Below are positions 1,239 through 50,600 of a DNA stretch of 64,000 bases, one piece after another. The DNA is from Patescibacteria group bacterium (GTDB taxonomy: Bacteria > Patescibacteriota > CPR2 > UBA1875 > CAIMLA01). The stretch spans positions 129,203 through 193,202 of the forward strand of contig JBGSPL010000004.1 of assembly GCA_041738615.1 (NCBI GenBank), written 5' to 3'. Each line of letters starts with the position of its first letter. Position 1 is the stretch's first letter. The translations under genes and the position numbers were made by a program. A model generated the notes under the pieces. That model was not told the origin of the DNA, did no database searches, and was given only the letters and a program-made list of their open reading frames with translations.

Positions 1239-1239
1239 T

Positions 1240-1635
1240 GGTGGAGCTGGTGGGTACCGCCCCCACGTCCGAAAGCGAATTCGAAATAATTTGTAACAAT
1301 CATACTCGTGACTGGTAGTTTTGGTGCTGATGGTCAAGTCTCGAGAAAATCCATCGGCCTTATCCTCTAGAGTTTCAGGCTAGCTTAGAGAAGTCACTAG
1401 CCCTACCCCTGACATATATGGCACTCAGTAGCGAACGATTCAGGTCTCACTCACAAGAGCGGTTACTGCGTATTAGGCAGCAACTGGTGCAAAGCTGTTT
1501 ACGCTGAAAGCGCTAGCAACCTTACTAACAAAGTTTTTTGCAACTATGTTTGATCTGCTGAATAACGCGGACAGACCACCGCGGATTGCATCATTTCGAT
1601 TTCAAGATACCTTCGTCGAAGCTAGTTCAGCCCCC
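1240..1635 (-). ncRNA. ssrA: tmRNA (SsrA), one-piece, about 396 nt
   Basis: On the minus strand the 5' end GGGGCTGAACTAGCTTCGACGAAGG and the 3' end GGACGTGGGGGCGGTACCCACCAGCTCCACCA match the E. coli tmRNA tRNA-like domain (GGGGCUGAUUCUGGAUUCGACGGG ... GGACGCGGGUUCAACUCCCGCCAGCUCCACCA), including an encoded CCA. The internal tag reading frame ends ...AFSVNSFAPVAA-stop (forward coordinates about 1474-1541), with a GCA resume codon. Confidence 0.88.
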
Positions 1636-3933: not shown

Positions 3934-4969
3934 TCATACCCTCCTTGTCGTTAAATGACTTCAACCTCTGAAGGTAGATGAAACCAAGCCCAAGTGGGGC
4001 CCAGAAATTGAGCCCTCTGTAGGTGATAGAGATGGCAGTAGCACTGATGAGAGGTACACCAAAGGATGTGAATATTAGGACGAGTACGGCTTCTACGGCA
4101 CCTACTCCTTCCGGGTGTGGTGAAACGACACGAACAACCTCTGCAAATACATATCCAGCGATGATAGCACCATAGTGGATATGGATATCGAAAGCTGCGA
4201 AAACCACAAAGAGGGAAGTCACGTTCACGACATGGGCGAGGAGAGCGAAAGCTAGCGTTTCGGCAATCTTTTTGCCATGTCCATAGAGAGCCTCGGACGC
4301 AATAGTGAGCTCACCTACGATATGGGTAGCCCAATCTGCCGGTAGTTTTTTCTGTATTTTTAACTTGTGACAAATGTAGTTGAAAGTTTTTGCTAGAAAA
4401 TTCAAAAAGGAGGTAGTAGCTCGAGTCTTCTTGGTAGCAGTCAGAAGTAGTAAGGGAGGCAGAATAGTGGGAATGACGAAGATAGAGGCGCCAAACACTT
4501 CATAGCTATTTAGTAAACCGGACTTTTGTAGGAAGACGATGGCAAAGATCAGAAGAACAAAAAACGAAGAGTAGCTGGAGACAGTACTCACTAAATATCC
4601 CACCACAGCCTTGGTAGAGGATTCCCTCCTTCTTACAGCATCATCTGCAAAAAGGATAGTACCAGAGTTCCCGGCGGTCGGCGCCAGCGTGTTTACAAAA
4701 AGCGAACCGAGGACGAGAGGGAAGAGATCTTTGATATCCCTCTTTATGTCTACCGTCTCAAACGCCTTTTGGGTCATTAGGGAAAAAATGTAGTAGTAAA
4801 GTACTTGGGTTGCGGCGGCGAGAAGTAGCCAGCGCCAGCTACCCTGAGATAGGGCATTGATTACAGCGAGGAGTTCCTTCCAGTTTATGTAAGCGTAAAC
4901 TAGAAAGGTGAGAAGCAAGGCTCCTAAAAATAATTTTCGTTTAGAAACTTTAAAGTGTAGTATCTTCAA
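3920..4969 (-). CDS. Flippase-like membrane protein (UPF0104 / lysylphosphatidylglycerol synthase TM-region family)
   Basis: 349 aa polytopic membrane protein with a basic N-terminus. It overlaps the downstream glycosidase by 14 nt and the upstream GT2 by 20 nt, consistent with an operon. Confidence 0.5.
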   Translation of the reverse strand: MKILHFKVSKRKLFLGALLLTFLVYAYINWKELLAVINALSQGSWRWLLLAAATQVLYYYIFSLMTQKAFETVDIKRDIKDLFPLVLGSLFVNTLAPTAGNSGTILFADDAVRRRESSTKAVVGYLVSTVSSYSSFFVLLIFAIVFLQKSGLLNSYEVFGASIFVIPTILPPLLLLTATKKTRATTSFLNFLAKTFNYICHKLKIQKKLPADWATHIVGELTIASEALYGHGKKIAETLAFALLAHVVNVTSLFVVFAAFDIHIHYGAIIAGYVFAEVVRVVSPHPEGVGAVEAVLVLIFTSFGVPLISATAISITYRGLNFWAPLGLGFIYLQRLKSFNDKEGMSDAS

Positions 4970-11604: not shown

Positions 11605-11739
11605 TCCTAAGGCCTTAATACGTAAGAAACTATAACACTTTTGTGCGGTTATGACAATTATTTGTAGGTTAAATTATTCTGTTGATTTATGGCCCAAAAA
11701 GAGTAGTATATGCTCATCGCAGCCGGAGAGGGAGGGGCT

Positions 11740-11880
11740 ATGAACCAATGGGGGCCGATTGACTGGGCCAGTTTCTGGCTCATCGTTCTGACCGTCCTCG
11801 GAGTCGGGGGCATGATGCTCGCAGTTTGGCTTGGCGGTGCCGCTCAGAGATCACAGCGGCGCATGGAGAACATCGAGTAA
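11740..11880 (+). CDS. Small single-TM protein (46 aa) in GC-rich island A
   Basis: A GGAGGGG SD lies 5 nt upstream of the ATG. The product is MNQWGPIDWASFWLIVLTVLGVGGMMLAVWLGGAAQRSQRRMENIE. Confidence 0.45.
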   Translation: MNQWGPIDWASFWLIVLTVLGVGGMMLAVWLGGAAQRSQRRMENIE

Positions 11881-11892
11881 GGAGGGGTCCCG

Positions 11893-12033
11893 ATGTACGA
11901 CATTCCAATGTGGGCGGTCTATACCATCGGAGCCGTAGCCGTCTTGGCGGCGAGCGCCTTCTTCAAGACAGTCTTGTGGGAGAAATCGATTGAGGAAGTA
12001 GAGGAGGAACAGGGCGCTGTAGACGCCACCTGA
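11893..12033 (+). CDS. Small single-TM protein (46 aa) in GC-rich island A
   Basis: A GGAGGGG SD lies 5 nt upstream of the ATG. The product is MYDIPMWAVYTIGAVAVLAASAFFKTVLWEKSIEEVEEEQGAVDAT. Confidence 0.45.
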   Translation: MYDIPMWAVYTIGAVAVLAASAFFKTVLWEKSIEEVEEEQGAVDAT

Positions 12034-12077
12034 CAGGTACTCGCTAAGTGCGAATCTCGATTGAAAGGAACTGTCCG

Positions 12078-12326
12078 ATGGATTCCCCAGTGTTCATGCC
12101 CTCATCAGAGTGGCAGCTAGGCTTTGCAGCGGCATGCGGTTTCGGTGTCCTCGTATTCTTCGGAATCAGCAGGATGCTCAGCCGATCACAGATCAAGAGT
12201 GACGATGTCTCGGCAGACATCGACGGACTCTATCCGCGCGAGGTCAACGAGATCGACGACGACCCGGTCGGGAACTACGAGGCGAGCATTGCACGGGCTA
12301 CCGGTCTCGACGGCGCGCCGTCCTAG
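12078..12326 (+). CDS. Small single-TM protein (82 aa) with an acidic C-terminal tail in GC-rich island A
   Basis: An AAAGGA SD precedes the start. The ORF runs 12048-12326, with an internal ATG at 12078 better placed relative to the SD. Confidence 0.4.
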   Translation: MDSPVFMPSSEWQLGFAAACGFGVLVFFGISRMLSRSQIKSDDVSADIDGLYPREVNEIDDDPVGNYEASIARATGLDGAPS

Positions 12327-12371
12327 CCACACAGGCGCCTGGCAGGCGCGAACACCTACCTCGAGTGGAGG

Positions 12372-12410
12372 GACCCGGATTACTGCTTTGGCGGTCTCCG
12401 GGTTTTTGTT
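12372..12410 (+). terminator. Putative intrinsic terminator closing island A
   Basis: A CCCGGA...TCCGGG hairpin is followed by TTTTTGTTTG. Confidence 0.45.
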
Positions 12411-12453: not shown

Positions 12454-12702
12454 ATGTATACAAGAATTGATAAAAAGATAAAAACGATAGCCCTTTTTGA
12501 AAACGGGAAGGTAATTCCGAAGATTTTTCGCTATGCAAACCGTGACTACAAAGTAAGGGGAATCAGCCTAGCTTATCAGGAACGGGAGGGTCGGTCGGTA
12601 AATTACTATTTTGGTATTGAGACCGATGAGGGCGGTGTCTATAAGCTTCATTACAACGACGAGAAACTCACCTGGTGGTTGGACGAAGTATGGCAAGATT
12701 AA
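12454..12702 (+). CDS. Hypothetical small protein (82 aa) immediately upstream of dinB and overlapping it
   Basis: Globular-looking sequence with no TM segment. Its stop overlaps the dinB start by 13 nt, suggesting translational coupling. Confidence 0.45.
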   Translation: MYTRIDKKIKTIALFENGKVIPKIFRYANRDYKVRGISLAYQEREGRSVNYYFGIETDEGGVYKLHYNDEKLTWWLDEVWQD

Positions 12703-13904
12703 TCCTTCATATCGATATGAACTCGTATTTTGCCACTGTGGAGCAGCAGGCGAACCCGAAACTTCGTGGCAAACCGATTGCCGTGATGGGCAGTACGGCA
12801 AAGCGGAGCATTATCGTTGCGGCAAGTATAGAGGCCAAGCGCTACGGGGTAAAGACCGCAACTAGGATAGATGAGGCGTTACGGCTCTGCCCTGAGCTGG
12901 TACTTGTAAACGGCGAACCGCGCAAATATAGCTGGGTGACGAAGAAGTTTATCGACATATTTGAGGGCTACACAGATAAGGTGGAGATCTTTTCTATAGA
13001 CGAGGCGTTTCTAGACGTGACCAAGACGGCAAATATTTATGGTGGGGCAGAGCAAATCGCTCTATCCATCAAGCAGCGGATTCGCGATGAGATTGGTAGC
13101 TACATCTCCTGCTCAGTAGGGATTGCAAAGAACAAATTTCTAGCAAAGACAGGCAGTGACCTCAAGAAGCCTGACGGTCTCACTATTATTACAGATGAGA
13201 ATGTTGATGACATTCTATTGTCGCTGCCCCTTTGTGAATTCTGCGGCATCGGCAAGCGGATCTTAGCGCGGCTAGGGGCCCTGGGAATCGGAACTACGCA
13301 ACAGCTGCGAGATTACCCAAACGTGCTTCTAAACAGGGAATTCGGAATCGCTAGTGGCGAGAAACTAAAAAGAATGGCCTACGGCATGGACAGCTCGCCG
13401 GTAATCAGTCGTCACGACAGGGCTGATGCCAAGTCTTATGGACATTCCAGGACCCTGAACAAGAATGTTACGGACAGAAATGAAATACGAAAGCATATGT
13501 TGCTTCTCTCCGAGAAGGTGGCCACGAGGATGCGCAAAGATGGCTGTATGGCTAAGGAGGTGGGGCTTTGGATTCGTTTTGGTGACTTTACCGGAGTGGG
13601 GCAACGTCATCGTATCGGCAAGTGGACCCACGATGGAGTAGAAGTATACGATGCAGCGGTAAAAATACTGGAGTTACTAGATCTACGGGCGCCGGTACGG
13701 GCCATCGGGGTCTACGCGGCCCAGATTCAGAGGGATTCCCATACGACTGCTAGTTTGCTTCCGGAAGATACGATAAACGACAAGATTCTGGCTGCTATGG
13801 ACGCCGTGAATAACCGTTTTGGTGAGACGGTAGTAACTCGTGCTAGACTGGCTGGAGTAAAAATCAAGGAGGTGGTTTCTGGTATGGGGAGGGATAAGTT
13901 CTAA
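12690..13904 (+). CDS. dinB: DNA polymerase IV (Y-family, DinB)
   Basis: LILHIDMNSYFATVEQ...SIDEAFLDVT... are the UmuC/DinB palm motifs. Start is taken at MARLILH. Confidence 0.85.
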   Translation: MARLILHIDMNSYFATVEQQANPKLRGKPIAVMGSTAKRSIIVAASIEAKRYGVKTATRIDEALRLCPELVLVNGEPRKYSWVTKKFIDIFEGYTDKVEIFSIDEAFLDVTKTANIYGGAEQIALSIKQRIRDEIGSYISCSVGIAKNKFLAKTGSDLKKPDGLTIITDENVDDILLSLPLCEFCGIGKRILARLGALGIGTTQQLRDYPNVLLNREFGIASGEKLKRMAYGMDSSPVISRHDRADAKSYGHSRTLNKNVTDRNEIRKHMLLLSEKVATRMRKDGCMAKEVGLWIRFGDFTGVGQRHRIGKWTHDGVEVYDAAVKILELLDLRAPVRAIGVYAAQIQRDSHTTASLLPEDTINDKILAAMDAVNNRFGETVVTRARLAGVKIKEVVSGMGRDKF

Positions 13905-13909
13905 AAATG

Positions 13910-13938
13910 TTGACGGCACATTCCCCGAGGTTTATATT
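13910..13938 (+). promoter_or_regulatory. Near-consensus promoter TTGACG-17-TATATT
   Basis: It lies directly after the dinB stop and opens GC-rich island B. Confidence 0.5.
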
Positions 13939-13945
13939 AACGATA

Positions 13946-14534
13946 CGCTGAAAGACCTGAATACTCGGAATTAGGGTTATCTAAGCGTGTTCCTAGACCC
14001 CTGCAACCGCAACTGCCTTTTGTTAGTAGCATGTGCCGACGCCGGGAGAACGTGTAGGAAAAACAAGATATTGCTGCGAGATCAACACCTCTCCGAGTGG
14101 GTGGGTTTCTCGCAAAGCGGGACTTTGCATTTTAGGCCGCTGGTAACTCGACTAACGAGTGGCCCACGCCGAAACGAGGGTGCACCCCTAGTCCATTGGG
14201 GCCTCGTGTTGCATTAAAGTCCAAGTCTATAACGTACCAGCATCTGTTCAGGTACCACTTGTAGGCGCATGTCCTGGTCGAAACGCTGCATTACTGCTGT
14301 CCTAGAGGCGGTAGGGGTGCAAGATCACTGATCAGGCAAGATAAGGTGCCATTAAGGCCCATATAGTACAGTCGCGTAATATCGCCACGAAGCAGAGAGC
14401 TCGGGCGCGGAGGCTGTCAGCGGGAACCGATTGGTACAAAGCTAGGCCGGCATGGTTGACCGTTACTGTGGTCACTTTGCCCTCGTTCGCGGATTTTGTA
14501 CCGCGATCACGGGGGCCATGCCGGCCCCTTTCAT
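13946..14534 (+). ncRNA. Candidate structured ncRNA 1 (about 590 nt, class unknown) in island B
   Basis: It is bounded by the promoter at 13910-13938 and the terminator at 14511-14534. GC is about 58%. There is no SD-led ORF. Multiple stable hairpins are present. Confidence 0.4.
14511..14534 (+). terminator. Intrinsic terminator (GGGGCC-AUGCC-GGCCCC followed by UUUCAU)
   Basis: 6 bp GC stem plus a U-run, ending 14 nt before the next -35 box. Confidence 0.55.
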
Positions 14535-14547
14535 GACTACAAACGCC

Positions 14548-14576
14548 TTGACAAAAAGGCTTTACGGGCGTATAAT
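14548..14576 (+). promoter_or_regulatory. Perfect consensus promoter TTGACA-17-TATAAT
   Basis: The sequence ttgacaaaaaggctttacgggcgtataat was read directly. Confidence 0.6.
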
Positions 14577-14583
14577 TCATTTT

Positions 14584-15138
14584 CGTGCATGACATCAAGT
14601 CTGCACATCCAAGGGGGGACGGCGCCAGCAGTAACGAGCAAGCGGTGAAGGGGGCGCCAGGATTGGCCCACGTGACGGACTCGTCCGTTATGAAAGGCTC
14701 TGCCGTCAACCAAGCAAGCGTGACGACAGGGTTCTGCCAATCTTTGAGGCATCGAGGCACGAAGCCCCACTTGGCGGATCTCACCGGTATGATACGGTGA
14801 GAGACGAATATTCTACGCCTATGGCGTATGCACCATATCGCAATTGCGATTGCCCCTCCTTGGAAGGGCTTAGAGGGAGAGAACCTCTAAGTGGGACGGT
14901 TCGAAACCGTAGGGGGCGCCAGAACCTCCGCGTGAGTTAGGCCGCAAGGCTGTTTCTCGCGCTCATAGGCGAGCTGGATATGGATAAGGGTCCACAAGCA
15001 TTCTAGCAAACTAGACCTCATCCCACTGTTCAGCGCCCATCAGTCCCCAGACTGATGGTTCGGGAGTAATCCCAAAGCACGGCTCGGAGTCCTTCGTGGG
15101 TACCAGTACCACAACGAAGGCCTTCGGGCCTTTTCATT
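14584..15138 (+). ncRNA. Candidate structured ncRNA 2 (about 555 nt, class unknown) in island B
   Basis: It runs between the perfect promoter and a strong terminator. It contains a T-arm-like hairpin ACGG-TTCGAAA-CCGT. The only ORFs are GC-driven and have no SD. Confidence 0.4.
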
Positions 15139-15139
15139 T
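15116..15139 (+). terminator. Intrinsic terminator (AAGGCC-TTCG-GGCCTT followed by TTCATTT)
   Basis: GC stem with a UUCG tetraloop and a T-run. It abuts the 3' end of the convergent methyltransferase gene. Confidence 0.65.
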
Positions 15140-15144
15140 ACATT

Positions 15145-15873
15145 CTATTTGTCTGGCTTTATCGCTATGGCAATGAGGTTTGGGTCTTTTTTACCATCAA
15201 CTCTTTTCTCAGCACTAGAGAGGATTTTTATTGCGGTAAAACCGGCCTTCTGTAATTCGTTTATGGTTTCTTTCTTAGTCCAGGCATGAAAATAACGTTT
15301 AGTCATAATATTTTTATGGACGCTCTTCCATGGCATCAGAAAGTCTCCATAATCGAGTCTGGATCTGCCGGCGGTAATTCGAACGCTTTCTTTTACTATT
15401 TCTTTTAGGTATTTTGGTTCGTTCCAAAAATACCAATTAGTAATTATTATTTTGCCACCTGGTTTTGTAATTCTAAACACTTCATTCAGGGCTTCCCTTC
15501 GACTTGCCTTCCCCGGTAGGTGGTGAAGAGTAGCCACTGAAAGAGTAAGATCGAAGGAGTCATTTTTGTAAGGAGTTTTTAAGATATTGCCAACCGCGAA
15601 ATTACCAGTAGGATACTTGGTTTTTGCAATTTCGATTAGCTTGTCACTAAGATCAATCCCAAAGTAGTTTACCTTATTGTCTATGAGCTCGTAGATTCTG
15701 CCACTACCGCACCCCAGATCGGCGATTTTGAAATTATCTGCAGATTTGATTTCGGAGAGCAGTTTCTTAAGGCTTGGCCAGTTGTATTTCCGCGTGCTCG
15801 CAAAGTGATGCGCAATCAGGTTATAATCATCACGGGTTTTGTCTATTAAATTTTGAGCAGTTTGTTTATTCAT
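15145..15873 (-). CDS. Trm9/ALKBH8-type tRNA (carboxymethyluridine34) methyltransferase homolog (class I SAM MTase)
   Basis: Block-wise similarity to yeast Trm9: DYNLIAHHFASTRKYNWP vs VYNEIAPHFSQTRYKPWP; DLGCGSGR vs DVGCGNGK; SVATLHHLPGKASRREAL vs SIAVVHHWSTRERRVEV; KPGGKIIITNW vs RQGGQALIYCW; DFLMPW vs DVFVPW. Confidence 0.7.
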   Translation of the reverse strand: MNKQTAQNLIDKTRDDYNLIAHHFASTRKYNWPSLKKLLSEIKSADNFKIADLGCGSGRIYELIDNKVNYFGIDLSDKLIEIAKTKYPTGNFAVGNILKTPYKNDSFDLTLSVATLHHLPGKASRREALNEVFRITKPGGKIIITNWYFWNEPKYLKEIVKESVRITAGRSRLDYGDFLMPWKSVHKNIMTKRYFHAWTKKETINELQKAGFTAIKILSSAEKRVDGKKDPNLIAIAIKPDK

Positions 15874-17443
15874 GAATGTAAAAAAAGAAATTATTTATAA
15901 TCTTATCGCAGGAAGGGCACGGACTCGGGCTGATTTTCGGCGTGTCGTGGCTTCAGTGTATAGAGATGATAACACGAGCGGGTATCATTCGAACATTGAT
16001 TTGCGCGAAACTTATGACGAAATGATAGTGAGCGACGGGATCGATGTAGACGAGAATATCGAGAAGCTCCTAATGACCAAGAAAATGCGTTCGCTGTCCG
16101 GGGTTTCCGTAATTACCGTCCTTACGAAGCCCTATCCTTGCCCCGGGAAGTGTATTTATTGTCCCAGTATTGTCGATGTGCCAAAAAGTTACTTGCCCGA
16201 TGAGCCAGCGGTAATGCGCGCCATACTAGCGGGTTATGACGCTAAAAAGCAGGTAGAAACCCGGCTAAAGTCACTAGTTCGCCAAGGTCATCCGGTAGAT
16301 AAGGTCGAGCTGATTGTCATTGGCGGAACCTTTAGCCACCTACCCCGCAAATATCAGGAAGAGTTTATAAAGGATTGCCTTGATGCTCTAAATGGGGTAG
16401 TTTCGAAGACTCTAGCCGCGGCCAAAGCTCAGAATGAGACCGCAGATTCACGTTGCGTGGGCCTGACTCTAGAGACGAGACCAGATCATATAACCCCAGA
16501 GGAAGTAGTGTGGTTTCGCTACCTCGGTGCAACCAGGGTTGAGCTAGGAGTCCAGACGGTATTCGATGACATTCTAAAGCTAAATGGTAGGGGGGAAAAC
16601 GTTGAGGCCACGGTTGAGGCAACTCGGCTACTTAAAGACGCTGGTTTCAAGATATGTTATCATCTGATGCCAAACCTCTATGGTTCTGACTTGGCTCGAG
16701 ATAAAGAGATGTTCCAAATAGTCTTCACTGACCAACGTTTCAAACCAGACTACATCAAGATTTATCCCTGTATGGTGATGGAAAGTACACCGCTTTATGA
16801 TCTTTGGAGGAAAGGAAAATACGTAAGCTACACCGACGATGAGCTGATAGAGCTAATCTGCGAGATAAAGAAAACTGTGCCATATTGGGTCCGAATCATG
16901 CGCACCATTCGTGATATCCCGGCACCAAATATCGAATCGGGGTCCAAGATGTCAAACATGCGTCAGATTATCTTACAGAAAGCAGAGCAAGAAGGTTGGG
17001 CATGTAACTGCATTCGTTGTCGGGAGATTGGCGCTAAGGCACAGGAGGAAGCAGCAGGAATCGCTCAATTTGTTGAGGAGTATCAGGCTAGTGAGGGCAA
17101 GGAATATTTTCTCAGCTTCGAGGATAAAGATAGAAGGAATCTCTACTCCTTGCTGCGGCTACGAATCCCCGGCACTAGCGAGATAGGGGAAGCTTTGCCT
17201 GAAATAGCAGGGTGCGCTTTGATTCGAGAAGTCCATACGTACGGACAACAGATTGAGATTGGCGAACAGGGAGATACGCAACACCGCGGCTACGGCAAGA
17301 AGTTGGTTGTCGAAGCTGAAAGAATAGCTAGGGGTAATGGATACGAAAGGGTAGCTGTTATTTCTGGGGTTGGTGTCCGTAGCTATTACCATAAGTTTGG
17401 CTACAAACTTAATGGCGAATACATGGTGAAAACACTCGACTAA
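15872..17443 (+). CDS. Elp3-family tRNA uridine34 carboxymethyl-transferase homolog (radical SAM domain plus C-terminal GNAT)
   Basis: Radical-SAM CPGKCIYC motif. The overall length and domain order match ELP3 (COG1243). The C-terminal acetyltransferase motif is QHRGYGKKLVVEAERIA. It is divergent from the Trm9-like gene with a 2 nt overlap of start codons. Confidence 0.75.
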   Translation: MNVKKEIIYNLIAGRARTRADFRRVVASVYRDDNTSGYHSNIDLRETYDEMIVSDGIDVDENIEKLLMTKKMRSLSGVSVITVLTKPYPCPGKCIYCPSIVDVPKSYLPDEPAVMRAILAGYDAKKQVETRLKSLVRQGHPVDKVELIVIGGTFSHLPRKYQEEFIKDCLDALNGVVSKTLAAAKAQNETADSRCVGLTLETRPDHITPEEVVWFRYLGATRVELGVQTVFDDILKLNGRGENVEATVEATRLLKDAGFKICYHLMPNLYGSDLARDKEMFQIVFTDQRFKPDYIKIYPCMVMESTPLYDLWRKGKYVSYTDDELIELICEIKKTVPYWVRIMRTIRDIPAPNIESGSKMSNMRQIILQKAEQEGWACNCIRCREIGAKAQEEAAGIAQFVEEYQASEGKEYFLSFEDKDRRNLYSLLRLRIPGTSEIGEALPEIAGCALIREVHTYGQQIEIGEQGDTQHRGYGKKLVVEAERIARGNGYERVAVISGVGVRSYYHKFGYKLNGEYMVKTLD

Positions 17444-19420: not shown

Positions 19421-19449
19421 TTGAAAACATTCTCGAACGGCGATATAAT
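19421..19449 (+). promoter_or_regulatory. Consensus promoter TTGAAA-17-TATAAT opening GC-rich island C
   Basis: The sequence ttgaaaacattctcgaacggcgatataat was read directly. Confidence 0.55.
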
Positions 19450-19503
19450 GACCGAGCCAAAAGGAAATCTGCAGCTTATGCTGCCTGACCCGAAGGAGTA
19501 CAA

Positions 19504-19779
19504 ATGGGAGTTCCGGTAGTAATGCCGGAAGGTGAATTGCAGCAGTGGATGATGACAACCGCTTGCATCGATCCTGTCACTGGTGGGATTCACCTTCGTA
19601 GGCTCGACCCGGTCTACGTCGAGGTTGACTTCGACAAGCAGGTCGGGTTCACCCAGTTCGGCGGGGAACTCAAGCTGTTCCCGTTAGACGATGGCGTGCC
19701 CAGGCCTCAGCTCGTTGTTACCGACCAGGTACTGGTCGATGGAGACGGGAATTGGGGTATCTATCCGAAGCATGAGTAA
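19504..19779 (+). CDS. Hypothetical small protein (91 aa, soluble, GC-rich codon usage), island C gene 1
   Basis: An AAGGAG SD lies 8 nt upstream of the ATG. The product is Asp/Val/Gly-rich. Confidence 0.5.
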   Translation: MGVPVVMPEGELQQWMMTTACIDPVTGGIHLRRLDPVYVEVDFDKQVGFTQFGGELKLFPLDDGVPRPQLVVTDQVLVDGDGNWGIYPKHE

Positions 19780-19791
19780 GGAGGTGGTCTC

Positions 19792-20064
19792 TTGGCTACC
19801 TTGATGGGTCGTTACCTCGGTAATGTAGAACTTACCGAGGGTGAGCGGCATAAGGTGGAAGAGGCAACAACGCAGAGTTGCCCTGGTCTTGCCGTCTCGG
19901 AGGCGGGCGCCACTGTGATACTGGAACACGAGGATCGTGTCGAGGTAGTTGCGACACCGGAGTGCTACATGCTCTTTGAGCCTCTCCCTGCGCAGGAGGT
20001 TTGCGTTCTTCCCGGAAACCATGTGCGAGTACTGACCAATGGTTCGTGGTTCTTGGACCACTAG
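19792..20064 (+). CDS. Hypothetical small protein (90 aa), island C gene 2
   Basis: TTG start with an AAGGAGG SD 8 nt upstream. Translationally coupled to gene 1 (12 nt gap). Confidence 0.45.
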   Translation: MATLMGRYLGNVELTEGERHKVEEATTQSCPGLAVSEAGATVILEHEDRVEVVATPECYMLFEPLPAQEVCVLPGNHVRVLTNGSWFLDH

Positions 20065-20098
20065 CCCAACCAAGCCCCCTGTGGCCGACCGAAGCGTC

Positions 20099-20117
20099 GC
20101 CCCGCGCGGGGCTTTTG
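20099..20117 (+). terminator. Intrinsic terminator closing island C
   Basis: GC stem-loop followed by a TTTT run. Confidence 0.55.
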
Positions 20118-20173
20118 TCGTTCTATTAGAGCCCTGCAGGGTGTAAAATATAGCCATAATAAAGGAGAATATT

Positions 20174-36558: not shown

Positions 36559-36587
36559 TTGACAAAAGCGGATAAAGGTGTATAATA
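36559..36587 (+). promoter_or_regulatory. Perfect consensus promoter TTGACA-17-TATAAT opening GC-rich island E
   Basis: The sequence ttgacaaaagcggataaaggtgtataat was read directly. Confidence 0.6.
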
Positions 36588-36676
36588 TTACGATAACTCA
36601 GGAAACATGTTTCCTTTGTGTCGTACCGCGGCCACGTGTCGCATACAATCCACGTACAATAGCCTGGGAGGCTTCC

Positions 36677-36811
36677 ATGGAATCAATCTTGGCTGATTAC
36701 TTTCGTGAGCGCTTGAGGGTTTCCTTGAGGGCACTCTACTTCATAGGCGTGTTCCTTCTCTTTTTGGGGGAAGCGCTCGTGGAGGACGCCTTGCGTCCTT
36801 TCAAGTTGTAG
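36677..36811 (+). CDS. Mini-ORF (44 aa, hydrophobic C-half) in island E
   Basis: A GGGAGG SD lies 6 nt upstream of the ATG. The product is MESILADYFRERLRVSLRALYFIGVFLLFLGEALVEDALRPFKL. Confidence 0.35.
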   Translation: MESILADYFRERLRVSLRALYFIGVFLLFLGEALVEDALRPFKL

Positions 36812-36918
36812 TCCATCGGGGACAATACGCAACTAGGACCCCGTTAGACGACCGCAGCCGGACGGTTTCCGGAAGGTTCCCCTCCCTCGTTGGAGGGGTC
36901 GAGCAAGGAGGTATCTCC

Positions 36919-37035
36919 ATGAAGGTCACTCGCAACGCAGTCGCCGTTCGCGGCACCCCGGTCGTCGGCAGCATCGGTCATACTTCAATTGATTCCGTCG
37001 CCAACGGCGCGCGCGCCGGCACGGGCCTGCTCTAG
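36919..37035 (+). CDS. Mini-ORF (38 aa) in island E
   Basis: An AAGGAGG SD lies 7 nt upstream of the ATG. It is preceded by the hairpin CCCCTCC-ctcgtt-GGAGGGG. Confidence 0.3.
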   Translation: MKVTRNAVAVRGTPVVGSIGHTSIDSVANGARAGTGLL

Positions 37036-37281
37036 GGCCCGGTCGTCTAGCCTCGGATCGTAGCTCCCGTAGGACGGGAGATCTGAGGCGCCAGCACTGT
37101 CCCCAGGTTTCAGACCAGGAACTCTCTTGGGGCGAAGCACTTGTACGTGGGAAAATGGGGTCGGTATGACTCACGTCTCGGTTGCCAACGACGGGCAACA
37201 GGCGTGGGTCGTACCGGCCCTTTCCCTTTTGTTGGCGGATGTATACTTGTTTCTTTCTCTCTGGCGCTCTAGAATAACTGT

Positions 37282-44623: not shown

Positions 44624-47600
44624 TTGGCACAAAGGCCACGATTCCTGAAAGCTAGAAGCTATTGCAAGAAAGCAGTAAGTGCATGTTCTGCTATATTTGG
44701 ATTGGCTATAGTTCGGGCTCTTACCTTCTTCATCGACAAGGCTCGGGTGTGGCGCTTTGAACTGACGTACAAGCTTCACCTCAAGGTTCGCTCAGTACAT
44801 GACAACTTGGTAGTGAAGAACGTTATTTATCGTAAGGTTACGGAAAATAAGTATGCAGTGCCGGTGCGAAATGCTACAGCTTCTGCCTTTGTTGTATCTC
44901 TAATGCTGTTTACTACTATTCAATATATATTGCCACAGTTCAATCTATTAGCTCCAGGTCAAGTTTATGCCGGGTCAAATAATAAGACGTGGACAACCAA
45001 AGCAGACTTCGAAACCGCAGCAACAAATGCGGGAGTGACAATCGGGGGTGATAATGACGCGAATGATGCAAATAACAACGATAATACTAAGCTTCAGGCT
45101 ACTTCAAACTGGTCCCAACCGTCTAACCCAACGGCTGGCACGGACACCACGTATTCTACTGCCGTGGATGGCGAATTTGTTTATATAGGTGGATTACAAT
45201 ATGTGGGCCAAGCTCCAGATTTAATTAATGGTGATTATCAGTGGAGAATTGAAAAGAGAAATATATCAGACGGTACTTTGGTGTGGGCCCAGACAGAGAA
45301 TAACGGTGGTTACTATGACTATGTAAAGGATATATTCGTTTCAGGGAGTTCGCTCTACTTAGTGGGTATCGGTTCAGGGGCAAGTAATAATGATACAAAA
45401 TGGGTAATAGAAAAAAGGAATATCTCAGATGGTGGATTAGCTTGGACACGGACTTACAATCCTTCAACTGGAAACGATGTCCCAATGTCAGGGGCTACTG
45501 ATGGATCCTGGATATATGTGGGGGGTCTCGATAACTCTATGTCTAATAACCCCGCTTGGCGGCTAGAAAAAATCTCCTCAGTGGATGGTTCTTTATCAAC
45601 AGCTGTTACGGTTGATATCAGTACTGGCGTGACTTCGTACGAGTCCATCACTGGTGTTGCTGTGTCCGGTGGGTACGTTTATATAGGTGGATACGGTGGT
45701 TCTGCGAGTAATTCCTTTGGGAGAATACAGAAAAGAAATTCGAGTAACCTGGCTTTGACAATTGGTACATGGACTGTTGACTCGGACCCAACCACCGGTA
45801 ATGATGGCATACAGGATTTAATTATTGACGGTAGTTTTTTATACGTTGGCGGTTATTCAGGTGCCAATTATAGATACGAAAAACGTAACATGACTACCGG
45901 GGCCCTTGTTTACGGCCAGAATATCACACCAACAGGAACGAATCCTAATGTTAATATGATGACCTCGGACGGAACATATTTTTATACTTCCGCAAGTTCA
46001 ATAGGGACATTCCCTACCTATTACTACATTATTGAGAAGAGGCTTCTCTCGGACGCCTCTCTTGTCTGGACGATTACTGGTAAGCCATGTCGCGGAATAA
46101 CTTTTTCCAACTCAAGCCTTTTTACGGCTGTTACCAACACTGGTGGAGGAGGTGATTGGCTTACGGAGAGAATGTCAGATGCCAATGGCTCGGTAACAGC
46201 CTTTAATACCCCTGGTAACCTAGGTTCGAGTGTTACATCCGCGGTTGGTCTCCGTTATGATTCAGGAATTGGTAATACCGCTAAGGCGTCTACGATTTCG
46301 TTGACAGGCACAACGGCCTCGAACAACCAGAAGGTAAAGCTCAAGGTTCGTTCTGGTGATACTCAAGGAGAACTAGACACCTCTTTCTGCTATGGTCCAA
46401 CCTCCACAGGTTCTGGCTGTAGCGATTGGAGTACGGCGGGATCATTCTTTTATCAACAGCGAGTAGCGGGCGTAGAGACCTCTTCGACGACCGGTATATT
46501 AAATACAATCCCAGCCAAAAGATTTATAGAAGTTCTAGTTCGTCTAGAATCAGACGGATCGAATACACCTGTCTTAGACAGAGTTGATCTGGGGTATAAC
46601 TATCTCGACGCCCCAATTGCCCAGTTAGCGAAGAGACTTAGCGGCACAACCGACATACCTTATGACACTTACACTAATGAATCAGGATTTGTTGAAAAAT
46701 ATTTCGCCCAAGGCTTTAACAGCGGGGAAACACTTTATCCAGAAATTGAAGTAGTGTCTCAAGGTGCGTCATTTACTGGCACTGGCACAGTTGGCCCAGG
46801 AGTTTTGTTAACCCCAGGAAATTATGCTAATCCTGTGGAACTTGCTGTTACTAAGAACGGATTAGCTCCAGGCAATTATAAATTTAAGGTTCGGACCTCC
46901 GACTCCACGGGGCGCATAAGTGCATGGTCTACAAACGAAGTACTTTTCCGTATCGAACAAGAACTGCCTACCGGTTCAGTTACCATTGGCGGGTCAAATG
47001 TCACGGGCGGATATGCGAAGTCGAGAAATGTAGTTCTTAGCTCGACGGTTAACGACACAGGGGGCTCAGGTCTGGGACAGATGCAATTTGCAAATAAACC
47101 CGCAATTGATGGGGACCCCCTAGTTTGGTCAGGGTGGGAACCGTATAGTACTAGCAGGGTTTGGGCACTTTCAGCTGGAAATGGGGCAAAAACTGTCTAC
47201 GCCCAATATCGGGATAATGCAGGAAATGTAACTAATACCTGGGCACAGACTAGCCAGGCTGATTTTCAAGGCGGACAAACCTCAGGGAACGCCAGTGTTA
47301 CTAATACCCCCGGAACTATCAAGCTAGTAGGAGGAGTGCAGACCACTATAATAAGGCCAAACGGTCCTGGAAACTATAGCCAATGGTCGCAGAATCCGGC
47401 AACGGGGCAAAACTGGGACAAGGTTGATGAGGTTGTAAATAACCAGGGGGATTATGTACTTGGAGGCGGTAAGGACCTCTATAATTTGCAGGATCCCGCC
47501 CTAAGCAACGTAACAATTACAGGAGTTAACATCTACGCAGACGCTTTCGGCTCGGATGATTGCGGAGGTTGTTCGTCGTTGATTTCTTTCGGTATCTATG

Positions 47601-50600
47601 ACGGTTCGGGTGAGTGGTTCTCTACAGGAGTGGAGAACTCGGGGAGTCCGCTCGGCAATTTTGGCTCGTTAACGAATCCTCGTACCGGACTGGCTTGGAC
47701 TCTATCCCAAATCAATAGTTTACAGATTGGTTTGCTTAGCAGCGGGTCCTCAGCAATTCTTTATCAGATATATGCCGAAGTCTCATATATTCCTTCGTCT
47801 CTCTCTGGAAATTTCGCATCATTCGTAAAAGACAACGCTAGTGCTCAACATTTTGAAAATATCTCCTGGTCGGCGGATGTTCCAACACAGGCAGGTGCCG
47901 ATGCCTTACGTTTCCAGGTAGCAGCCAACAATGATAACACCACCTGGAACTATGTAGGACCTGATGGGACGAGTGGGACATACTTCACAACCAGCGGTAC
48001 CCAGATACCTACAAGTCTGAATGGTAATCAATATATCAGGTATAAGGCTTATCTCCAGTCGGCAGATTCCGCCTATACCCCCGTTATTTATGACGTATCT
48101 ATAGGAGTAACTACTGGTATTTCGGCTGCTGTCACGCTAGACGCTACCGCTCCAACAGGCACCGCTACTATCAATGCCGGTAATCCGACCTATGCAACAA
48201 ATCGCGCTGTAACGATGATTCTCGATGCCTCGGACGTGGGTACTGGTCTCAAGGACTTCCAGCTCTCGAACGACGGCGTCACCTGGGGCGCAGCTACCGA
48301 CGCGAATGGGGCAATCACAAATAGTGGTTGGCAGACTTGGGACGAGGCATACAAAACTACTGGTTACAGCGGAAGCTGGTCGTTGCTAGCGGGATTGGAT
48401 GGTCCTCGCAAGGTCTACGCGAGATTTAGGGATCTAGCGCTTAACATCGGAGGAGACTACTATCCAAACTGGATAGACGGCACAGGTACTATAAATAACA
48501 TCCAGGTTTACAATGCAAATGAAGCGACTAAAAAACAGTGGGGACCAGTTTCGGCTTGTCCAGGCCCGCAGTGTACGACAGTCACAGACGCTTACTGGGG
48601 TGATGGTAATGGTCTCTCAGCTGATAATAGTCTAGATTATTCTGCTTACCCGGCACGAGCTGCATGTCAGATTGTTGGCGGAAGACTGCCAACATTTGGT
48701 GAACTTGAGGGGATGTATGCCAATCAATCTAGTTACGGGCAAGCCTTTAATCAGGATGATTTTTTCTGGACCTCTATGGAATATGACTTAAATTCTTCGA
48801 ATGCGAGAGGATTTAAATTTTCCAACGAAGCGTCCTCGGCCACACCGAAAAACTACTCTTACTATGTTCGTTGTGTACGAGATTTAACACCTGCCGTTAT
48901 AGCTATTTCGGACAATGTCACTCTCGATATGACACTACCTACTACGGCTCTCATCGCCGATCCCGTAACAAACGATGGCTCAAATGGCTGGTACAAGACA
49001 AATCCGACTATCACTCTGACGGCAACAAAGAACGGCTCGGGCGTAGGTATAGAGAACGTGTTGTATCGTTGGGATAACAGTGACCTAGGATCTGGGACCA
49101 CTACTTATTCGACGCCGTTTGATATGGCCGGTTCCATCGGCCAGGGGACACACACCTTGTACTATAGGTCCAAGGACTTCGCTGGACACGTGGAAGGCAC
49201 GCAACAGCAACTCTTCAAGCTCGACACTACTTTACCTACAACGGGATACTCTATAGGAACCCCAAATGGTGCAAATGGTTGGTTCGTTGATACTGCACCA
49301 CAAATCACGCTTTCGCCTTCTGATGCCGGCGGCGGTAGTGCCTCTGGTATCGCAAGCACCAAGTACCAATGGGACAGCACAAGTGGCAATTGGACCACGG
49401 GTACAAGTGTCACGGCGATAACCGGCGACCATGTGCTCTACTACTATTCCACTGATACCGCCGGAAACGATGAGGTACAGATCGAACATCAACAGATTAA
49501 GTTTGATAATGGTAAGCCCCTAACCCCAACAGATTTTCGTGCACCGCTCAACGAATCGTCTACAAACATCATAGTTCTGCATTGGGATGCGGCGTTAGAT
49601 GGCGGTGGCTCAGGAGCCGTAGATTATCAGATACGTCGAAAGAAAGATTCAATCCTTTCCTGGAATGATGCGAGCGTTTGGACTTCTGGGCAGCTAGGTA
49701 ACGTACAGGTGTACTCCGACAACGCAGGTCTTGATGCTGGTTTCAAGTACAATTATCAGATTCGGGCCACGGACCTTGCAGGTAACTTAGCAGACTGGCC
49801 GGGTGACGGGGTAAAGACGGATGGTTATACTATAGACAACGTTCCACCTTCGACACCTAGTGCTGTGGTGGCAACAGTCTGTGATGGTACGGTGCAGAAA
49901 TGTAGCGATGTTAACAATCGTGGCTCTGAGATCAGACTCACCTGGACGATATCTAACGATACTGGACTCGGTATGGGCCCCGACGCTGAGGGCAAGATAG
50001 GCCACTACAAAATCTGGCGTTCTGTGACCGGGAGCGGTGTTGAAAACGAGTGGGTTTTGGTCGGTGTGGTTGACGGAAGCAGTGGTCAGCAAACAATTTG
50101 GTATGACAACAATGACAATAATGCCGCTACCTACAACATTGGAGTTTATCCTGTAACGGATCAAAGAAGTGGACAGCCGGCTGGTAAGACCTCTATTTCA
50201 ACGGGCCTAAACGACTACACGCAGTACTACTATAGAATTACAGCACTTGATCTTATTAACAATGAGAGTGATCTCTTTCCACCGTTCTTTCCAGACCCAG
50301 ATATCAACAAAAACGGCAATACCGCTATCACTCCAGATATTACTCCGCCGACAAACCCAAGCGCAGTTACAGCGACCGCCCTGGGTCTTGATGGTAGTGA
50401 TCTAAATAATCCAAACATTGGCCATCAACGAATTTCTGTAAACTGGGCAGCATCGGTAGATTGCAAGGCCTTGGTTACTAACTGTACCCAAGCGACGCCA
50501 AACATAGATCGGGGTAGTGGCAATGTGTCCTATAAAGTATATCGTTCCACAACGAATTATCTCGACGAAGCAGATTGGCTCACTAGTGGTACCCTAGTAA

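Follow-up and report, generated by a model that had tools for sequence, protein, structure and literature searches.

Two adjacent predicted large RNAs of unclassified families downstream of dinB in a Patescibacteria genome, one of them with a variable, tRNA-like part

Large folded RNAs are few in bacteria, comprising the ribosomal RNAs, ribonuclease P (RNase P), transfer-messenger RNA (tmRNA), the group I and group II introns, OLE, GOLLD, ROOL and raiA, and to our knowledge nearly all large bacterial RNAs have proved to be a ribozyme, the core of a ribonucleoprotein or an RNA-only assembly. GOLLD (RF01998) and ROOL (RF03087) are ornate RNAs of about 600-800 nucleotides (nt), protein-free by annotation and of unknown function. 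Both are 'often near tRNA islands' (tRNA, transfer RNA; PMC12286853), and in GOLLD tRNAs sometimes lie inside the linker, the 3' region being conserved and the 5' region variable (PMC12286853). This study focused on positions 13905-15145 of a 64,000 nt stretch of contig JBGSPL010000004.1 from a Patescibacteria group bacterium (the whole stretch is referred to as the window), where 1.24 kb poor in open reading frames (ORFs) separates the stop codon of dinB from that of a convergent class I methyltransferase gene. GOLLD and ROOL are the nearest described situation to what was found there, namely two predicted RNAs in tandem, RNA A and RNA B, which represent two unclassified large RNA families; membership in the named known classes is excluded.

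An earlier sequence-only reading had proposed two adjacent, independently promoted structured RNAs of 550-600 nt at this place, a proposal to which conservation, selection and covariation now lend support. That reading missed that the 5' part of the B family consists of tRNA-model matches in sister genomes. The two predicted units, with the main parts of RNA A, are as follows:

13910-13938, + strand: RNA A promoter, TTGACG-17-TATATT (promoter scan, 10/12)
13945-14534, + strand: RNA A, about 590 nt, structured and non-coding; start inferred 7 nt after the -10 hexamer, end at the U tract
13962-13968, + strand: UACUCGG motif near the 5' end of RNA A, inside helix 13947-13970/14091-14113
14092-14099, + strand: UCCGAGUG, pairing partner of the 5' motif
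14444-14535, + strand: 3' three-way junction of RNA A and its U tract (model R2)
14548-14576, + strand: RNA B promoter, TTGACA-17-TATAAT (promoter scan, 12/12)
14583-15139, + strand: RNA B, about 560 nt, modular and non-coding; start inferred

Relatives were collected by a DinB-based scan of one genome per species, followed by a metagenome scan and exact-protein look-ups; the related contigs or loci compared with the window carry the labels L001, L002 and so on. The closest relative, L002, is an uncultured Candidatus Saccharibacteria bacterium with a DinB 95% identical, and the scan also gave more distant Saccharibacteria and Patescibacteria contigs. Exact-protein look-up of DinB from its GTG and ATG starts gave no match, and that of the methyltransferase gave an identical sequence in L001 only. 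Searches by blastn and nhmmer with the window sequence, or with a profile of window and L002, recovered L002, weakly L004, and nothing further; distant homologues were located by synteny, and covariance models then confirmed them. MAFFT alignments of B units that are far apart were untrustworthy and were excluded from the covariation analysis. The recurring order is dinB, an ORF-free stretch, the methyltransferase gene (- strand) and an Elp3-like radical S-adenosylmethionine (SAM) gene (+ strand). This homology search recovered the locus downstream of dinB in no fewer than 13 distinct Saccharibacteria/Patescibacteria contigs, of which six have A and B and seven have B only, and compensatory changes were found in A and in the B core. 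The arrangements are:

A then B in tandem: the window (identical to L001), L002, L004, L082, L088, L162
Single B-type unit: L005, L084, L087, L167, L171, L174
B unit behind an inserted sulfatase-family gene: L003 and, in part, L085

RNA A was found only together with RNA B and always directly upstream of it, with a weak putative terminator between them. Neither unit is present in L095 (DinB 55%), where 38 nt separate dinB from the methyltransferase gene, nor in L173, in which dinB has another context. The A/B stretch is an insert specific to a sub-clade and held at one chromosomal place, and, as far as sampled, both RNAs are restricted to a sub-clade of Saccharibacteria. The inserted ORF before the B unit of L003 and L085 (627 amino acids, aa) was considered as an RNA-related gene and rejected, as its product is a sulfatase-family protein. 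About 250 nt of repeat-like sequence is common to L084 (5063-5330), L086 (1545-1790) and L167 (4710-4960); this stretch (e.g., GUCAUUGCGAGGAACGAAGCAAUC, CCAGGUUCAAGAAAAUUCAGACU) lies after dinB and upstream of the B promoter, the place taken by RNA A elsewhere.

Comparison of the window with L002 gave a measure of selection. Identity at four-fold sites is near saturation (dinB 49%, Elp3-like gene 36%, methyltransferase gene 33%) and the methyltransferase proteins are 49% identical, while RNA A is 77% identical over its full length, the last 330 nt of RNA B 79%, and dinB DNA 81%; 30-nt segments with 87-97% identity extend across 14422-14540 and 15010-15130. Both RNAs are under strong purifying selection, about as strong as that on dinB DNA. 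The region is non-coding and holds no supported ORF, as the sequence-only reading had maintained. The longest ORFs are 76 aa (+ strand) and 150 aa (- strand), and among the seven region ORFs of 44-150 aa there was no Pfam match at E<=1. Substitutions relative to L002 show no codon periodicity (46/41/44 in A and 23/22/25 in the alignable part of B), and the indels are 1, 2, 5, 6 and 8 nt long. The claimed richness in G+C stands in relation to the methyltransferase flank, with 0.51-0.58 in the region and 0.38-0.41 in that gene, but is only slight in relation to dinB (0.47-0.52).

No catalogued family accounts for either RNA. At gathering score, the sole Rfam 15 match in the whole window was tmRNA at 1239-1634, and neither A nor B was assigned a family; across 13700-15350 at E<=10 there were two chance-level matches to small motifs (M23 and whalefall-1). 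Seven homologous loci, scanned at E<=1, gave only tRNA and a chance mir-205 match outside the locus, and the RNA A homologues matched no family at that threshold. RNase P, signal recognition particle (SRP) RNA, 6S, OLE, GOLLD, ROOL, HEARO and raiA had no Rfam match at these thresholds in the window or the seven loci. The failure of the sequence-only reading to match RNase P, SRP, 6S or tmRNA by eye is borne out by Rfam, which gave none of them in the region even at E<=10, and its suggestion of an OLE-, GOLLD-, ROOL- or HEARO-type RNA falls, leaving a novel class as the sole survivor among its candidates. ARAGORN called no tRNA gene in the window, and blastn gave no match to the region among 50,697 phage records or in plasmid collections. 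In the literature searched there was nothing relevant on such RNAs in Saccharibacteria or Patescibacteria, groups not mentioned in a 50-genome survey of non-coding RNAs. RNase P-like boxes seen by eye in RNA A (AAAGUCC, ACAGAA/ACAAAG) were rejected, as the P4 complementarity is absent and Rfam gave no RNase P match. The tmRNA gene (1239-1634, - strand) is of the standard one-piece type and scored 96.6 bits in Rfam; ARAGORN made no call there.

Each unit begins with a predicted promoter of the sigma-70 type, with both hexamers, a spacing within 16-18 nt and a position conserved in relatives. The two are the best of 11 sites in 12500-16500, where shuffles gave 4.5 +/- 2.1. The site before RNA A, described as near-consensus in the sequence-only reading, ranks second of the 11, and the one before RNA B, described there as perfect, is one of two 12/12 sites in the whole 64 kb. 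A -35/-10 pair also stands right after the dinB stop codon in L002, L004, L082, L088 and L162, and a pattern search over 12 other relatives with B found an equivalent promoter heading that unit in 10; those of L084 and L174 were recognised by eye. Across the relatives, a consensus-like promoter heads nearly every A or B unit. The end hairpins are GGGGCC-AUGCC-GGCCCC-UUUC, ending near 14532, for RNA A and GGCC-UUCG-GGCC-UUUUC at 15119-15135 for RNA B. Related terminal hairpins are conserved in relatives, and the B units of L003, L004, L084, L167 and L174 end in related G+C stems followed by CCUUCGC-UUUUAU. By their position and their conservation in relatives both hairpins are putative terminators, weak by the usual rule.

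The consensus fold of RNA A, from the window, L002 and L004, has 160 pairs in 21 helices, with 89% of cells paired. Both sides changed in 35 of the 160 pairs, as compared with 15.4 +/- 2.9 in column shuffles (0/500 reach 35) and 3-10 when partners were slid by 1-3 columns. RNA A is about 14 kcal/mol more stable on the + than on the - strand, and the abundant G-U pairs of the consensus folds agree with + strand transcripts. Helix 1 of the consensus fold is 93% paired. All six A RNAs have the 5' motif UACUCGG (UGCUCGG in L082), at a distance of 13-24 nt from their inferred start, and each carries a perfect downstream complement of 7-11 nt; a matching 6-mer complement arises in 15% of shuffles per sequence. 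Bases flanking the motif covary, with GGAA/UUCC in L002, GGGA/UCCC in L004 and GCUCGGG/CCCGAGC in L082.

At the 3' end of RNA A, the outer helix of the junction joins GGCCGGCAUGG (14445-14455) to CCAUGCCGGCC (14516-14526) around hairpins at 14457-14474 and 14480-14515. Compensatory changes affect three pairs of this helix (G-C to A-U in L082 and L088, C-G to U-A in L162), and about 90 nt of the junction is at least 90% identical to L002. A covariance model of the junction (R2), built from L082, L088 and L162 only, was searched against 435 kb, and its best non-seed matches were the window at 14444-14535 (28.3 bits, E 5.5e-6), L002 (20 bits) and L004 (15.8 bits). A reading of hairpin CCCUCGU-UCGCGG...CCGCGA-ACGGGGG-CCA (14480-14518) as a tRNA minihelix was rejected because the CCA belongs to the covarying outer helix; the T-loop-like loop is also not kept in L082 and L162.

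Similar-looking stretches occur elsewhere in the window. Its only other 12/12 promoter, TTGACA-16-TATAAT at 36559, heads about 650 nt of G+C-rich sequence (36559-37235, + strand) with two short ORFs of about 44 and 38 codons (by eye), each preceded by a Shine-Dalgarno (SD) sequence. The closing stem of this stretch, GUCGGUAUGAC...GUCGUACCGGCC-UUUCCC, resembles the RNA A 3' junction; model R2 gave 37158-37227 a non-significant score of 13.3 bits (E 0.4). More G+C-rich intergenic islands, with up to 0.62 G+C, lie at 11700-12400 and 19421-20130 (both + strand), the latter headed by an 11/12 promoter at 19421; they contain small SD-preceded ORFs, some of them hydrophobic, and G+C hairpin ends.

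RNA B is modular, and its predicted parts in the window are:

14585-14606, + strand: leader hairpin, GUGCA...UGCAC
14609-14774, + strand: variable 5' cassette of 166 nt, unalignable with L002 (identity 13-43%)
14806-14842, + strand: trailer motif, AAUAUUCU, with hairpin ACGCC-UAU-GGCGU and then AUGCACC-AUAU
14851-14921, + strand: embedded tRNA-like element without a D arm; acceptor-like stem UGCCCCU/GGGGGCG
14921-15118, + strand: conserved 3' core (consensus fold)
15119-15139, + strand: terminal hairpin GGCC-UUCG-GGCC and UUUUC, ending about 6 nt before the methyltransferase stop codon

The minimum free energy (MFE) of RNA B is -244.9 kcal/mol (z -7.2) on the + strand and -229.4 kcal/mol (z -5.1) on the - strand; of the two segments that the sequence-only reading found full of stable hairpins, B far exceeds its shuffles in stability and A does so only modestly (z -2.1). 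At the position of the leader, L002, L003, L004, L005, L087, L088 and L162 have a different hairpin (by eye). The 5' cassette of the window, a non-tRNA fold, is possibly closed by helix CCAAGGGGGG/CCCCACUUGG, as read from the sequence; the MFE fold instead pairs 14609-14618 with 14855-14865.

Downstream of the cassette, the trailer motif is present in nearly every B, as about eight pyrimidine-rich bases, a hairpin of 4-7 base pairs (bp) and (U)UGCACC. The hairpin varies with compensation (ACGCC/GGCGU, ACCGC/GCGGU, CGCAAUG/CAUUGCG and others). A covariance model of the trailer (R1), from L004, L082, L084, L162 and L167 and excluding the window and L002, had its best non-seed matches in the 435 kb in L002 (28.7 bits) and in the window at 14806-14842 (22.8 bits, E 0.005), where the motif is the best match within the window; it matched none of about 20 unrelated Patescibacteria loci, some of which have ordinary tRNA genes. 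A 15-base trailer pattern gave scattered single matches in viral contigs among the matches listed, and these were judged to be chance, the pattern being so short. A small palindromic hairpin (14837-14850) comes after the trailer motif in the window and L002. The 3' core is the best conserved part, with 15010-15130 being 87-93% identical to L002. Its consensus fold over 14921-15140 (window, L002, L162) has 62 pairs, 11 of them changed on both sides, for example GCUGGAUA/UGUUCAGC versus GUCGAAUA/UAUUCGAC.

Between trailer and core lies the tRNA-like element. The T-arm-like ACGG-TTCGAAA-CCGT (14896-14910) of the sequence-only reading is real, and is part of this element rather than an isolated oddity. 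The T arm, GACGG-UUCGAAA-CCGUA at 14895-14911, has four pairs, a G-A closing position and a canonical loop, and fits the T arm of tRNAs (5-bp stem, 7-nt UUCRANN loop, G53-C61); it is preceded by an 8-bp arm (14869-14891) with loop GAGAGAA and no U33, and a CCA at 14919-14921 closes the element. No D arm could be drawn between 14858 and 14868. The acceptor-like stem and the T stem each differ from those of L002 by compensatory changes (C-G to G-C and A-U to G-C, respectively). L162 lacks the element at this place, and its behaviour is therefore also that of a cassette.

Sister genomes have, as the 5' cassette of B, one to four matches to the tRNA model with anticodon arms that are not canonical. 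L002 has at the 5' cassette position a 107-nt match to the Rfam tRNA model (43.6 bits), in which D arm, T arm, acceptor stem and CCA are normal and a hairpin of 36 nt replaces the anticodon loop. Matches above the gathering score, of 41-59 bits, occur in the B units of L002, L005, L084, L087, L088 (three) and L167 (two), most of which ARAGORN rejects or labels '???'. In L003, L004, L088 and L162, an acceptor stem, a T-arm-like hairpin and NCCA were read from the sequence around 100-150 nt of unrelated sequence. Modules of serine type, in L005 (7288-7392), L087 (6536-6636) and L167 (5070-5175), have a Ser-type D arm, a very long variable arm and CCA, and share the anticodon stem CACGA/UCGUG; their loops are CUGGCAG, UUAAAAA and CUGACAA, respectively, with triplets GGC, AAA and GAC and with U33 and A37 intact. 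Were they charged by seryl-tRNA synthetase and used on the ribosome, they would put Ser at Ala, Phe and Val codons. The L174 module has a 5-nt anticodon loop. What is conserved in the modules of the B family appears to be the tRNA elbow and acceptor end, not decoding. Two further observations concern tRNA-like sequence at related loci: L006 has a normal tRNA-Asn and a stray T-arm-like piece after dinB, and L095 has a tRNA-model match of 46.7 bits (4216-4284) just downstream of its Elp3-like gene, labelled by ARAGORN as 'tRNA-???' with a two-base anticodon.

The genes flanking the two RNAs in the window are:

12690-13904, + strand: dinB, the upstream flank
15145-15873, - strand: class I SAM methyltransferase of the Methyltransf_11 type (as Trm9), stop codon at 15145-15147
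15872-17443, + strand: protein of Elp3 architecture (radical SAM, Radical_SAM_C and GNAT)

The methyltransferase and Elp3-like genes are divergent, with overlapping start codons, and in every relative the pair adjoins the RNA locus. Bacteria do not usually have an Elp3/Trm9-like pair for the modification of wobble uridines, and a link of the pair to the neighbouring tRNA-like RNAs is suggested only by association. Further neighbours include BipA, so that the locus has a chromosomal housekeeping context and is not a prophage; no integrase, repeats or phage genes, and no IscB, TnpB, reverse transcriptase or OLE-associated genes, were found near it in the window or the relatives' loci. An 82-aa ORF (12454-12702, + strand) without Pfam match overlaps the dinB start, and most relatives have a gene of 81-83 aa directly upstream of dinB, with a weak DUF6504 match in some. 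Far downstream, two giant ORFs of 2918 and 3097 aa are adjacent at 44624-53380 and 53483-62776 (+ strand).

The reading preferred here, and given an even chance of being right, is that A and B are two trans-acting structured RNA genes on the + strand, B being a precursor or carrier of non-decoding tRNA mimics and A its partner. No gene in the same orientation follows RNA B, and both RNAs should therefore act in trans. RNA A would be a multi-helix fold framed by its long 5' helix (UACUCGG/CCGAGU) and by the 3' three-way junction, which would double as terminator. RNA B, made in large amounts from its consensus promoter, would be a scaffold in which the 3' core is the constant body and the 5' cassette is exchanged; in sister genomes, the cassette is made of tRNA-shaped modules, between one and four of them, each with acceptor stem, T arm and CCA; their anticodon arms are longer or shorter than usual or bear unrelated triplets. 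Since the modules keep the parts used by RNase P, 3' end processing, the CCA enzyme and elbow binders and lose the decoding parts, B is taken as a precursor or carrier of non-decoding mimics, to be read by enzymes of the acceptor/T-arm elbow such as RNase P and those that mature the 3' end and CCA; a shared processing or binding site may be formed by the trailer hairpin with the GCACC box. As A occurs only with B and directly upstream, it probably works with B, much as GOLLD and ROOL go along with tRNA islands. From these patterns we infer that tRNA enzymes process B, that its modules mimic tRNAs and that A and B cooperate. The A junction and B trailer of the window are found by models from other genomes alone, which counts in favour of the preferred reading. 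RNAduplex gave only meaningless full-length duplexes of A and B, and no pairing between the two is claimed.

Several points weigh against this reading. The ends of A and B were placed from the sequence. Both terminator hairpins are where the sequence-only reading put them, but their U tracts are short (3-4 U) and the terminator scan listed neither, because it required five U in eight bases. The fold of RNA A is only modestly better than shuffles (z -2.1), and covariation was assessed on three aligned sequences per fold, with structures drawn from the same alignments, which inflates the contrast with the controls; the outer-helix test on six sequences is weak, as 39/500 shuffles reach its score. 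In the window, neither B module reaches a tRNA score (Rfam even at E<=10; ARAGORN), so that the label 'tRNA-like' there depends on a single T arm, an acceptor-like stem and a CCA, and this CCA runs directly into core sequence, internal to the RNA and with no discriminator base. Finally, two L088 modules are called Gly-GCC and Glu-CUC by ARAGORN and could be working tRNAs.

Those two calls help to keep alive the main rival, in which B is a tRNA operon whose working tRNAs are unusual-loop decoders or dedicated aminoacyl donors for non-ribosomal reactions (e.g., synthesis of cell-wall cross-bridges), the rest of B being spacer and processing scaffold and A an unrelated neighbouring RNA. This was judged unlikely. 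The modules of relatives score as tRNAs in Rfam and encode CCA; those like tRNA-Ser keep U33, A37, the long variable arm and the D arm of that tRNA; and in the L084 module the sequence was read as having G3-U70 with A73, which are known to specify alanine identity. On the other hand, the window's B is conserved without any tRNA-model match at E<=10, which speaks against working tRNAs as the general function, and the best conserved part of the family is the non-tRNA 3' core. Moreover, L174, L084, L088 and L002 have anticodon loops that measure 5, 6 or 8 nt or are extended by a 36-nt hairpin, and triplets for Ala, Phe or Val on the body of a tRNA-Ser would lead to mistranslation. The same partial features (T arm, acceptor 3' strand and CCA without full cloverleaves), their high variability between relatives, and the tRNA-Asn with a stray T-arm-like piece in L006, could be taken as a decaying tRNA cluster, or as scars of elements integrated at tRNA genes, with no present function. 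That explanation is very improbable: A and the 3' part of B have kept 77% and 79% identity despite saturated four-fold sites, and a decaying relic is therefore ruled out if the selection estimate holds. It is also countered by consensus-like promoters kept in relatives, by compensatory changes, and by the absence of integrase, repeats and phage genes nearby and of matches in phage and plasmid collections.

It is extremely improbable that A or B is a very divergent GOLLD, ROOL, OLE, HEARO/omega RNA, RNase P or group I/II intron. A size of about 600 nt with many helices would suit such a class, as would the tRNA-model matches beside or inside the RNA in relatives, which recall GOLLD and ROOL (PMC12286853), and the conserved 3' and variable 5' parts of B, as described for GOLLD; yet Rfam gave no match to these classes (window at E<=10, seven homologous loci at E<=1), and the housekeeping context lacks IscB, TnpB, reverse transcriptase and OLE-associated genes. 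Scarcely credible is a cis-acting stretch, whether a 3' untranslated region of dinB, an insulator between convergent genes or a carrier of a small-peptide gene. Although the position between convergent genes, the start of unit A 6 nt after the dinB stop codon and a 14-codon GTG frame inside 14892-14936 would fit, both units are headed by consensus promoters of their own, which relatives retain, no co-oriented gene lies downstream, codon periodicity is absent and frames are broken by indels; the same genes, moreover, are only 38 nt apart in L095.

Beyond the preferred reading, a bolder and distinctly unlikely proposal is that A and B are paired new large-RNA classes in which B displays exchangeable tRNA-shaped cassettes and A is an assembly or catalytic partner, the two jointly capturing, presenting or acting as decoy for a factor that reads the elbow. 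Candidates for that factor would be the adjacent Elp3-like/Trm9-like pair, a tRNA-targeting toxin or an aminoacyl-transfer enzyme. If true, the pair would be a counterpart, in a free-living genome, of GOLLD with its linked tRNAs. At the least, two unclassified RNAs of about 600 nt stand side by side in a lineage of the candidate phyla radiation with a very small genome, in which retained non-coding DNA is costly, and selection on them is as strong as on neighbouring proteins. The B family may offer a natural series of tRNA-shaped modules with anticodon arms freed from decoding, which makes it testable whether parts of the tRNA shape are used outside translation.

The precise relationship of A and B to described RNAs can be set out class by class. 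The window's element resembles tRNA (RF00005) in its T arm with UUCGAAA loop and, in part, in its 7-bp acceptor-like stem and encoded CCA; it differs in having no D arm, U33 or discriminator base and in lying inside a longer RNA, and a gathering score is reached only in the B units of relatives, with neither that score nor an ARAGORN call in the window. With their unrelated anticodon triplets, the Ser-type bodies of L005, L087 and L167 are reminiscent of allo-tRNAs, which are reported to carry many non-Ser anticodons (PMC5389517). Mimics of the acceptor and T arm can also be part of longer RNAs, and RNA B with its embedded mimic is comparable to these. The tRNA mimic of MALAT1, mascRNA, is a signal for processing by RNases P and Z (PMC8457004). 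In B, the module content varies between close relatives, unlike in those RNAs. The tRNA-like domain of tmRNA and bacterial YrlA are, with MALAT1 mascRNA, examples of mimics embedded in or appended to longer RNAs, and both differ from B: a normal tmRNA is encoded elsewhere in the window (1239-1634) and the element lacks G3-U70, and no Rsr/Ro gene lies near RNA B.

OLE (RF01071) is likewise about 600 nt long, highly structured, provided with strong expression signals of its own and of unknown biochemical function. It is confined to Gram-positive extremophiles or anaerobes and lies in an operon with oap genes (PMC9723947); A and B have no match to its model, and nothing like the oap operon is present at the locus. 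The closest likeness is to GOLLD and ROOL, in that the large RNA A abuts B, which has a conserved 3' core and, in relatives, a 5' part of tRNA-model matches. The differences are that neither A nor B matches a covariance model of these classes, in the window or in homologues, and that the setting is chromosomal housekeeping in a Saccharibacteria-like clade, with tRNA-model matches adjacent in relatives but with no phage or prophage context and no match in phage records. The link between a large RNA and a tRNA array, so far phage-borne in GOLLD and ROOL, would with A and B extend to a chromosomal, non-phage setting.

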